From Eledone cirrhosa (taxonomy: Eukaryota), in assembly GCA_964016885.1 (NCBI GenBank), contig OZ024741.1:303180001-303244000 (forward strand): DNA of 64,000 nt. Reading direction: 5' to 3'. Position numbers and translations under genes: made by a program. The notes below the pieces were generated by a model. That model saw only the letters and a program-made list of their open reading frames with translations. It made no database searches and had not been told where the DNA came from. This document shows, piece by piece, positions 52,313 through 53,060 of the stretch (position 1 is its first letter; every line of letters begins with the position of its first letter).

Positions 52313-52634
52313 AATACATATATATACATATATATATACATATACATATATATATATATATATATATACATACATATATATATACATACATATATATATA
52401 TATATACATACATACATTTATATATATACATGCATACAAATATATATATGTACATATATATACATATATATATATATAAACATACACATATATATATGTA
52501 CATATATGTAGGAGGTGAGTTTTATTGTAGTACAATAAAGCAATGCAGATATCGGATAAGAAGCACTCTACAATTTGTAGGACTGGAGAATACATAATAT
52601 ATAAGATCAAAAGATGGTTAAAGGAGTTCCATGT

Positions 52635-52703
52635 ATTTTATTATGCGCATTTCAAAAACAAACATCATCATGCAATAATATTTGTGTTTTCATCAGATAA
52701 AAC
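52635..52703 (-). ncRNA. Type I hammerhead ribozyme motif
   Basis: Exact reverse complement of 52803-52871. Confidence 0.85.
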
Positions 52704-52802
52704 AGGAGAACATGATATGAAGGCTAAAAAACACTTGTGGATATGTTGATTTAAAACTGCACTATCCACAAGTGTTTTTTAGTTTTCATATCATGTTCTC
52801 CT

Positions 52803-52871
52803 GTTTTATCTGATGAAAACACAAATATTATTGCATGATGATGTTTGTTTTTGAAATGCGCATAATAAAAT
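52803..52871 (+). ncRNA. Type I hammerhead ribozyme motif
   Basis: GTTTTAT-CTGATGA-AAAC ACAAATAT TATT GCAT GATG ATGTTTGT TTTT-GAAA-T GCGC A-TA-ATAAAAT: 7-bp stem I, long stem II and a palindromic GCGC loop 3. Confidence 0.85.
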
Positions 52872-53060
52872 ACATGGAACTCCTTTAACCATCTTTTGAT
52901 CTTATATATTATATGTACATATATATACATATAGATATATATATAAACATAAATATATACATACACATATATATATGTACATATATATACATATATATAT
53001 ATATATAAACATAAATGTATACATACAAATATATACAGATACATAAATATATACATACAC

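Follow-up and report, generated by a model that had tools for sequence, protein, structure and literature searches.

At positions 52508 to 52912 of the window analysed here, a 64-kb stretch of the Eledone cirrhosa genome that is rich in TA microsatellites and LINE fragments, lies a 405-bp palindrome whose two inverted arms (52594-52743 and 52763-52912, 150 bp each) are separated by a 19-nt spacer. Sequence comparison confirmed the original prediction of inverted arms of about 150 bp, of two adjacent changes (52722-23 versus 52783-84) as their sole differences, and of a tail outside the inverted repeat on one side only, although the tail (52508-52593, minus strand), previously put at 85 bp, measures 86 bp. 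The insertion had also been called young, and this agrees with arms that differ by one dinucleotide and with about four differences per 405 bp from the common state in public contigs. Comparison of the inverted repeats and of those contigs indicates that the left arm (minus strand) is a pLTR-like unit that bears the tail and lacks its first 22 nt, and that the right arm (plus strand, with a derived TT at 52783-84) is a tail-less unit that retains them. In the public contigs, the 5' end of the right unit (52741-52762, plus strand) consists of the 19-nt spacer plus a 3-nt overlap (52741-43) with the left arm, so that the tail and the 22-nt 5' extension sit on opposite arms with 3 nt shared at the joint. 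The palindrome therefore contains an inverted, 5'-shortened pLTR joined head-to-head, a feature of Penelope-like elements (PLEs).

Each arm carries a minimal type I hammerhead motif, recognized by motif and folding, at 52634-52704 on the minus strand (core 52696, predicted cut 52642) and at 52802-52872 on the plus strand (core 52810, predicted cut after 52864). The cores, CUGAUGA at +52810 and -52696, are 114 bp apart, and the elements of a minimal hammerhead (core CUGANGA / GAAA / UH with helices I and II) are present: stem I has 8 bp including one G.U, stem II has 3+12 bp around a 1x1 mismatch and is followed by GAAA, and stem III has 2 bp closed by a GCGC loop. A hammerhead inside the pLTR, a further PLE feature, is hence predicted here from the motif. 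Helix III lies in a self-complementary stretch of 8 nt with a predicted duplex energy of -12.5 kcal/mol. The motif, the GCGC loop, and the outward orientation are as originally described, but the term textbook hammerhead does not apply, given that the form is minimal and of the dimer type, that an A-U pair with a symmetric helix II replaces the G10.1-C11.1 pair and the extra base after A9, and that Rfam covariance models gave no hammerhead match at gathering score across the window. At E<=10, 72 Rfam matches fell within 52400-53000 and none was to a hammerhead; those to miRNA families near the palindrome were rejected as hairpin and TA-repeat noise below gathering scores. A strict hammerhead descriptor, drawn up with the motif already in view, matched seven times in the window, in three families, versus a mean of 0.017 and a maximum of 1 in 60 block shuffles. 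For a single unit alone, the hammerhead fold is predicted to lie 4.4 kcal/mol above the minimum-energy fold. A single minimal motif is reported not to cleave and dimers to cleave at a low level (PMC4209133), and the two hammerheads of the palindrome, being on opposite strands, cannot make a working dimer from one read-through RNA.

The tail has a predicted terminal 8-bp hairpin that overlaps AATAAA (52521-52539, minus strand), the folding of the whole tail being modest (z = -1.93). At its base, folding (z = -2.56) and motif search indicate a stem-loop (52563-52592, minus strand) of the form TATACTC-N12-17-GAGTRC, from which the focal copy deviates at a single base, 52589; the motif base is found there in other genomes. 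The TATACTC...GAGTRC pattern opens the tail in all three families of palindromes discussed below and, although derived from these same copies, is matched exactly five times in the window, each time at a tail base, versus 0.06 expected by chance. The predicted stability of the stem-loop is good in the focal family only (z from +0.02 to -1.91 in the four others folded). In three pairs of arms among those listed, the tail-less arm stops within approximately 10 nt before the stem-loop. A 43-residue open frame through the tail returned no candidates in a protein search, which is a weak test.

The target site and neighbouring repeats

The view that the palindrome was inserted into a GTAC-interrupted TA tract with a target site duplication (TSD) held up, as the joined flanks align to an insert-free copy of the tract and a direct repeat spans the junctions. 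The joined flanks scored 270 and 269 on windows covering 49751-50500, whereas the best other score was 174 and the median 99.5 (128 AT-rich 500-nt windows). Of the right-flank 18-mers, 285 of 303 were found in 49930-50330, and 130 of these are confined to the flank and that tract; for the left flank, the corresponding counts were 64 of 76 and 14. The empty site that had been reported in the same window (delimited here by flank alignment and 18-mers at 49905-50300, plus strand) is thus real, but it is a paralogous copy of the microsatellite and its interpretation as an allele was rejected, because the two tracts are bordered by different sequence on the outside and because the continuation at 50303-50577 matches 55119-55413. 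The copies are also distinguished by several slippage differences. From the alignments, the tract without the insert appears to be a paralog whose duplicate later took two inserts, the palindrome and an array of 466-bp units described below; it could also have lost an insert between its direct repeats, which would leave the inference of a TSD unchanged. The complex microsatellite as a whole (49905-50580 versus 52395-53230 and 55119-55413) has a second copy 2.5 kb away, set in different outer sequence.

Across the junctions, direct repetition extends for at most 15 bp (52493-52507 = 52910-52924, both on the plus strand), or 12 bp if the first three bases of the right copy, which are shared with the arm end, are assigned to the element; the left copy was also compared with the paralog. 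A short TSD in AT-rich or microsatellite DNA, as in PLEs, is therefore present, with a length of 12-15 bp that is ambiguous within the repeats. A 14-mer on both sides of the insert had been taken as a sign of a TSD, and although it is indeed present on both sides, it has 66 copies on the plus strand of the window and alone proves nothing. The TSD is called because the filled copy has one GTAC unit more than the paralog.

The palindrome is not unique. The original prediction, which did not name a Penelope-like origin, overlooked a sister double-hammerhead palindrome 1.5 kb away (50581-51038); the window also contains four palindromes of a third family. The sister element, delimited by repeat comparison and the descriptor, has an 81-bp tail (50581-50661), 185-bp arms (50662-50846 and 50854-51038) with one mismatch near the end, cores at +50932 and -50768, a weak helix II, and a TATATA helix III. 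The geometry is kept between sister and focal elements (103 versus 102 nt from core to tail hairpin, and 85 versus 85 nt from hairpin to end), and helix III is self-complementary in both families despite four changed bases (TGCGCA versus TATATA). Sequence similarity between the two hammerhead families is weak (score 41 versus a shuffle maximum of 37 in 300). A single-arm, tail-less relative of the sister family with a broken core (GAAG) lies between TA-repeat flanks at 56190-56380.

The four palindromes of the third family (14980-15111, 39089-39229, 48554-48659, and 60734-60826) have one tail each, of approximately 65-70 nt, and with it they span 14909-15111, 39089-39300, 48481-48659, and 60734-60892 in TA tracts. 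A one-sided 3' tail, as in PLEs, is present in the focal palindrome and in all five others. Their centres differ (spacers of 4, 9, 2, and 5 nt), the family has a small palindrome at its centre, and fragments of it lie at 7640-7760 and 25443-25510. Its hammerhead-like core was not called as a ribozyme, as helix I could not be assigned and the strict descriptor failed.

Other features of the window were noted in passing. A lone CTGATGA...GAAA motif beside TA repeats at 3269-3324 (plus strand) failed the strict descriptor, and the sequence downstream of it resembles 48360-48427. An 8.6-kb self-complementary TA tract (21369-29995) has the third-family tail fragment at 25443-25510 near its middle, and a non-repetitive sequence occurs at its two outer ends (about 21370-21460 and 29910-29995) in inverted, diverged copies. 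Four 3' fragments (45169-45739, 48857-49262, 51172-51696, and 51716-52310, minus strand) derive from one LINE-like element and carry a C2H2 zinc-finger remnant, with Pfam matches in two of them, and each ends in a TA microsatellite; two are adjacent and lie between the two microsatellite copies.

Copies of the family in public sequencing runs

Part of the palindrome stretch is contained in 20 of the 24 listed sequencing runs, from 15 studies; no RNA run is among the holders listed, and four listed runs have small shares. Positions 52505-52800 were compared with contigs of four runs (X1, X4, X5, and X22), which may derive from species other than E. cirrhosa; 4162 contigs matched in X1, 60 in X4, and 27 in X5, and the raw-read run X22 gave 0 reads. 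In X1, summed depths reach approximately 2 million, which marks the family as highly repeated, depth not being a copy number. A metagenome match at one locus (L001, a 23-nt stretch) was set aside as a chance match in a GC-rich bacterial contig.

The best 15 of 61 joints, all from the single run X1, lead from 15 different places (52537-52709) to 52739-52751; each is found in one or two contigs, and several have extra letters in between. It should be noted that the choice of the stretch 52505-52800 biases which joints are visible. Tail-less ends at approximately 52590 followed by (AT)n were found in 36 contigs of X1 and one of X4, and left-arm contigs continue into the reverse complement of the spacer in ten contigs of X1 and three of X5. 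Taken together, the X1 joints, the (AT)n ends, and the spacer continuations show that the 5' end is defined, near 52741, that the 3' end recurs at two places, and that each insertion truncates the partner arm at a new position. A dispersed family with variable 5' truncation, another PLE feature, is accordingly found in these runs (4162, 60, and 27 contigs, with the variable joints in X1). Further loose ends in X1 point to a subfamily: at 52609, 30 contigs have a different 3' end before the TA tract, and at 52781, 21 contigs have a different sequence after the mismatch site.

Origin of the palindrome

The reading that we favour, with a probability of roughly 0.7, is that the palindrome is a pLTR-only insertion made by Penelope-like retroelement machinery, that is, two ribozyme-bearing ends placed head-to-head in a TA microsatellite. 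An inverted 5'-truncated copy, a one-sided tail, and (TA)n targets are described for PLEs (PMC8557442), as are inverted pLTRs with a tail on one of them and TSDs of 8-10 bp, the head-to-head arrangement being given as the most frequent (PMC3846280). Dual minimal hammerheads that lie 100-700 bp apart on opposite strands have been ascribed to truncated PLEs (PMC4209133). Moreover, a purified PLE protein, predicted to be dimeric, cuts and extends both strands, and reverse transcription by the PLE protein starts at two internal sites that bound the tail (PMC11167929). Against a PLE origin stand the tail, which at 82-86 nt is twice as long as the 30-40 nt given for PLEs, the failure of Rfam models to match, the missing G10.1-C11.1 pair, and the lone hammerhead fold at 4.4 kcal/mol above the minimum. 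Among the 150 longest of the 270 non-repetitive frames of the window, no Pfam match to GIY-YIG was found and the single reverse transcriptase (RT) match (2-274, minus strand; RVT_1, E 3.4e-06) is below the curated cut-off and 52 kb from the palindrome; no RT or GIY-YIG frame was found at or near the palindrome within the window. As no parental RT/GIY-YIG gene was found, membership rests on layout, and the statement that the palindrome works like a PLE end is firmer than the statement that it is a PLE.

Under the Penelope-like reading, the mobile unit would be a short RNA segment of approximately 255 nt that begins at a defined position (52741) and contains a minimal hammerhead as well as a tail. 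A PLE RT/GIY-YIG protein would cut the two strands of the TA tract 12-15 bp apart, and each target 3' end would prime a cDNA, one starting at the end of the tail and the other internally, where the tail stem-loop has its base. The tail-less cDNA would reach the 5' end of the RNA and the tailed cDNA would stop 22 nt short of it, after which the 3' ends of the cDNAs would anneal over 3 nt and be filled in. In the product, both 3' ends, and hence both hammerheads, would point outward. What was observed directly is the layout and the TSD, together with a highly repeated family in which central joints vary and 3' ends recur in two forms, with and without the tail; two cDNAs primed at staggered cuts and joined by microhomology would explain TSD, tail, spacer, and variable centre alike. 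We infer this two-cDNA step from the anatomy, part of which an antisense template would explain as well.

It is in the source of the inversion that the nearest alternative differs. Within the same PLE origin, the inversion could have arisen through self-priming, with an antisense strand as the template, or through fold-back at the 5' end of the pLTR, following the model of Arkhipova et al. (2013), which was proposed in PMC3846280 together with a report of palindromes at pLTR 5' ends. The small central palindrome of the third family, the 3-nt register at 52741-43 / 52763-65, and perfect mirror joints at 52741 among the loose ends of X4 are all in keeping with it. A fold-back from the right arm, however, which owns the spacer and lacks the tail, could not produce an 86-nt tail on the left without a second template, and partner arms that end inside the tail (joints from 52537-52560) carry sequence absent from a tail-less first strand. 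A single folded-back cDNA is ruled out as the sole source because tail and 5' extension are on opposite arms, and the alternative as a whole is considered unlikely. That same asymmetry, along with a TSD and arms that differ at two bases, speaks against an assembly artefact, such as a fold-back read chimera and/or a falsely duplicated microsatellite. Long TA tracts do assemble badly, no listed contig spans the locus, and raw-read run X22 gave 0 reads, yet independent short-read contigs have the same class of joints and the microsatellite copies differ in their outer flanks and by several slippage differences, so that an artefact is very improbable. Near-perfect long inverted repeats, a TSD, and a lack of coding capacity would suit a MITE or fold-back DNA transposon that targets TA tracts, the 150-bp arms being its terminal inverted repeats and the whole palindrome moving as one fixed unit. 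Such an element would have inverted repeats at both termini and a fixed interior, neither of which was found: the 86-nt tail lies outside the inverted repeat on one side, centres vary, tail-less ends are ragged, and the hammerhead is conserved with a compensated helix III. We consider this explanation scarcely credible.

The last alternative, a functional switch between ribozyme and hairpin in which the difference between the arms is retro-copied A-to-I editing, stems from the original prediction and is given next to no weight. The mismatch is indeed a pair of adjacent transitions, and the hairpin on the minus strand has two A.C mismatches. However, the contig comparison points to CC>TT in the right arm, which reads as C>T on the ribozyme strand and as G>A on its complement, and A to G would erase the mismatch at 52722-23 / 52783-84. 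At 52722-23, no other letter reaches 5% in any run, including the 4162 contigs of X1; contigs with zero differences across these positions have GG in X4 and X5; and depth in X1 at 52785-94 is approximately 1% of that at 52715-24 (8,285 versus 805,910). Because GG, the left-arm state, is common in X1 and present in X4 and X5 and depth on the TT side is low, the TT of the right arm is derived, a direction that is the reverse of editing, and editing as the source of the mismatch was rejected. The TT may have arisen by a change after insertion or by RT error. On the right side of the mismatch (52785-52800), depth in X4 is 129-168, so that TT may be a subfamily state in that run, which would point to two different templates and not to editing. 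Six changes could be polarized in the palindromes of the window (two here and four in 14980-15111); A>G on either strand would account for two of them, three others are C>T, and the last is a transversion, too few in all for a test of the spectrum.

As for the switch, each read-through strand does have one sense ribozyme, as predicted (cores +52810 / -52696, each reading outward), but the proposed competition with a hairpin did not withstand folding analysis. The predicted folds of the read-through RNA have energies of -254.5 (plus) and -247.7 (minus) kcal/mol, and enforcing the hammerhead on the plus strand raises the energy to -149.7 kcal/mol, making the hairpin approximately 105 kcal/mol more stable. 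Whichever direction is read, transcription reaches the antisense arm before the sense arm, such that the hairpin would be complete over the ribozyme once the latter is transcribed. Since, in addition, this type of ribozyme needs a second copy on the same strand, no real contest between the two is expected. Under the Penelope-like reading, the hammerhead would be baggage of the pLTR, built to act as a dimer through its self-complementary helix III and locked in a 150-bp hairpin on read-through RNA. It is plausible from the predicted fold that such RNA is a substrate for dsRNA or siRNA pathways, and inverted Penelope copies are reported to yield siRNA (PMC3681739); if transcribed, the copies would be a large source of perfect dsRNA hairpins.

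Significance and comparison with known systems

The locus itself is an ordinary retroelement stump, and its value is mechanistic, in that the copies are short, abundant, and young, with a target site that can still be read, and offer junction statistics and a candidate start signal. The parts of some interest are the placement of tail and 5' extension on opposite arms and the tail-base stem-loop motif common to three families. By what route inverted pLTRs and tails arise in PLEs is described as an open matter (PMC8557442; PMC11167929). Tentatively, and as a possibility that we rate somewhat below even odds, the genome may hold thousands of pLTR-only head-to-head products that record priming by a PLE dimer on both target strands, with two cDNAs started at two fixed sites flanking a long tail (65-86 nt) that opens with a conserved TATACTC...GAGTRC stem-loop, and joined by microhomology. 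If so, the copies would be a natural data set for deciding whether inverted pLTRs originate from dual target priming or from antisense self-priming, and they would name a cis signal for internal initiation of reverse transcription across three divergent families. Among open-licence papers, at the level of titles and the starts of abstracts, none was found to treat these families or dual priming in PLEs, and supplements could list such families. A squid genome is reported, with no further detail, to contain 235 hammerhead loci and Penelope elements (PMC6962438).

Retrozymes of the non-LTR type, which are described as derived from the pLTRs of PLEs (bioRxiv 10.64898/2026.07.22.740005), resemble the palindrome in being short, non-coding, high-copy units with one type I hammerhead (PMC7229834; bioRxiv 10.64898/2026.07.22.740005). 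They are, however, head-to-tail tandems that can form dimers and circles, whereas the palindrome is head-to-head with a tail, and head-to-tail hammerhead units were not found at 52508-52912; tandem copies may exist elsewhere, the joints covered being the best 15 of 61. The retrozyme layout is fitted better by the array at 53424-54860, within the same duplicated microsatellite, which consists of three head-to-tail 466-bp units that differ only by gaps totalling 18 nt in the first. Every unit has a minus-strand type I hammerhead motif (53723, 54189, and 54655) with a palindromic CTAG helix III.

The minimal hammerheads of PLEs (Cervera and De la Pena, 2014; PMC4209133) share with those of the palindrome a type I core, a long helix II, and a short palindromic helix III that implies action as a dimer, and the 114 bp between the two cores falls within the 100-700 bp given for dual motifs on opposite strands. 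The palindrome differs from them in having A10.1-U11.1 for G-C and no extra base between positions 9 and 10.1, as well as a longer helix II (15 bp) and a helix I of 8 bp. The Anolis Poseidon element PAc (Frangieh et al., 2024; PMC11167929) likewise has a tail, downstream of its hammerhead, that is bounded by two recurring 3' ends; its internal start lies at a stem-loop, and its target is AT-rich. PAc is, however, an autonomous element with a tandem pLTR-ORF structure, and the start sites of the palindrome are deduced from genomic ends alone.

In overall build, the palindrome corresponds to the EN+ PLEs (Penelope/Poseidon, Neptune, Nematis, Hydra, and Naiad; PMC3846280; PMC8557442), in which a head-to-head inverted terminal repeat that is shorter at the 5' end, a one-sided tail, a short TSD, and AT- or TA-microsatellite targets are described, and the rotifer pLTRs of 193-218 bp are similar in length to the unit of the palindrome (approximately 170-255 nt). 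Unlike these elements, the palindrome has no body and no reading frame between or beside its repeats; its tail (82-86 versus 30-40 nt) and TSD (12-15 versus 8-10 bp) are longer; and it has a hammerhead, whereas Naiads are described as lacking canonical ones. The layout is thus one already known for PLEs, to which the palindrome would add another example.
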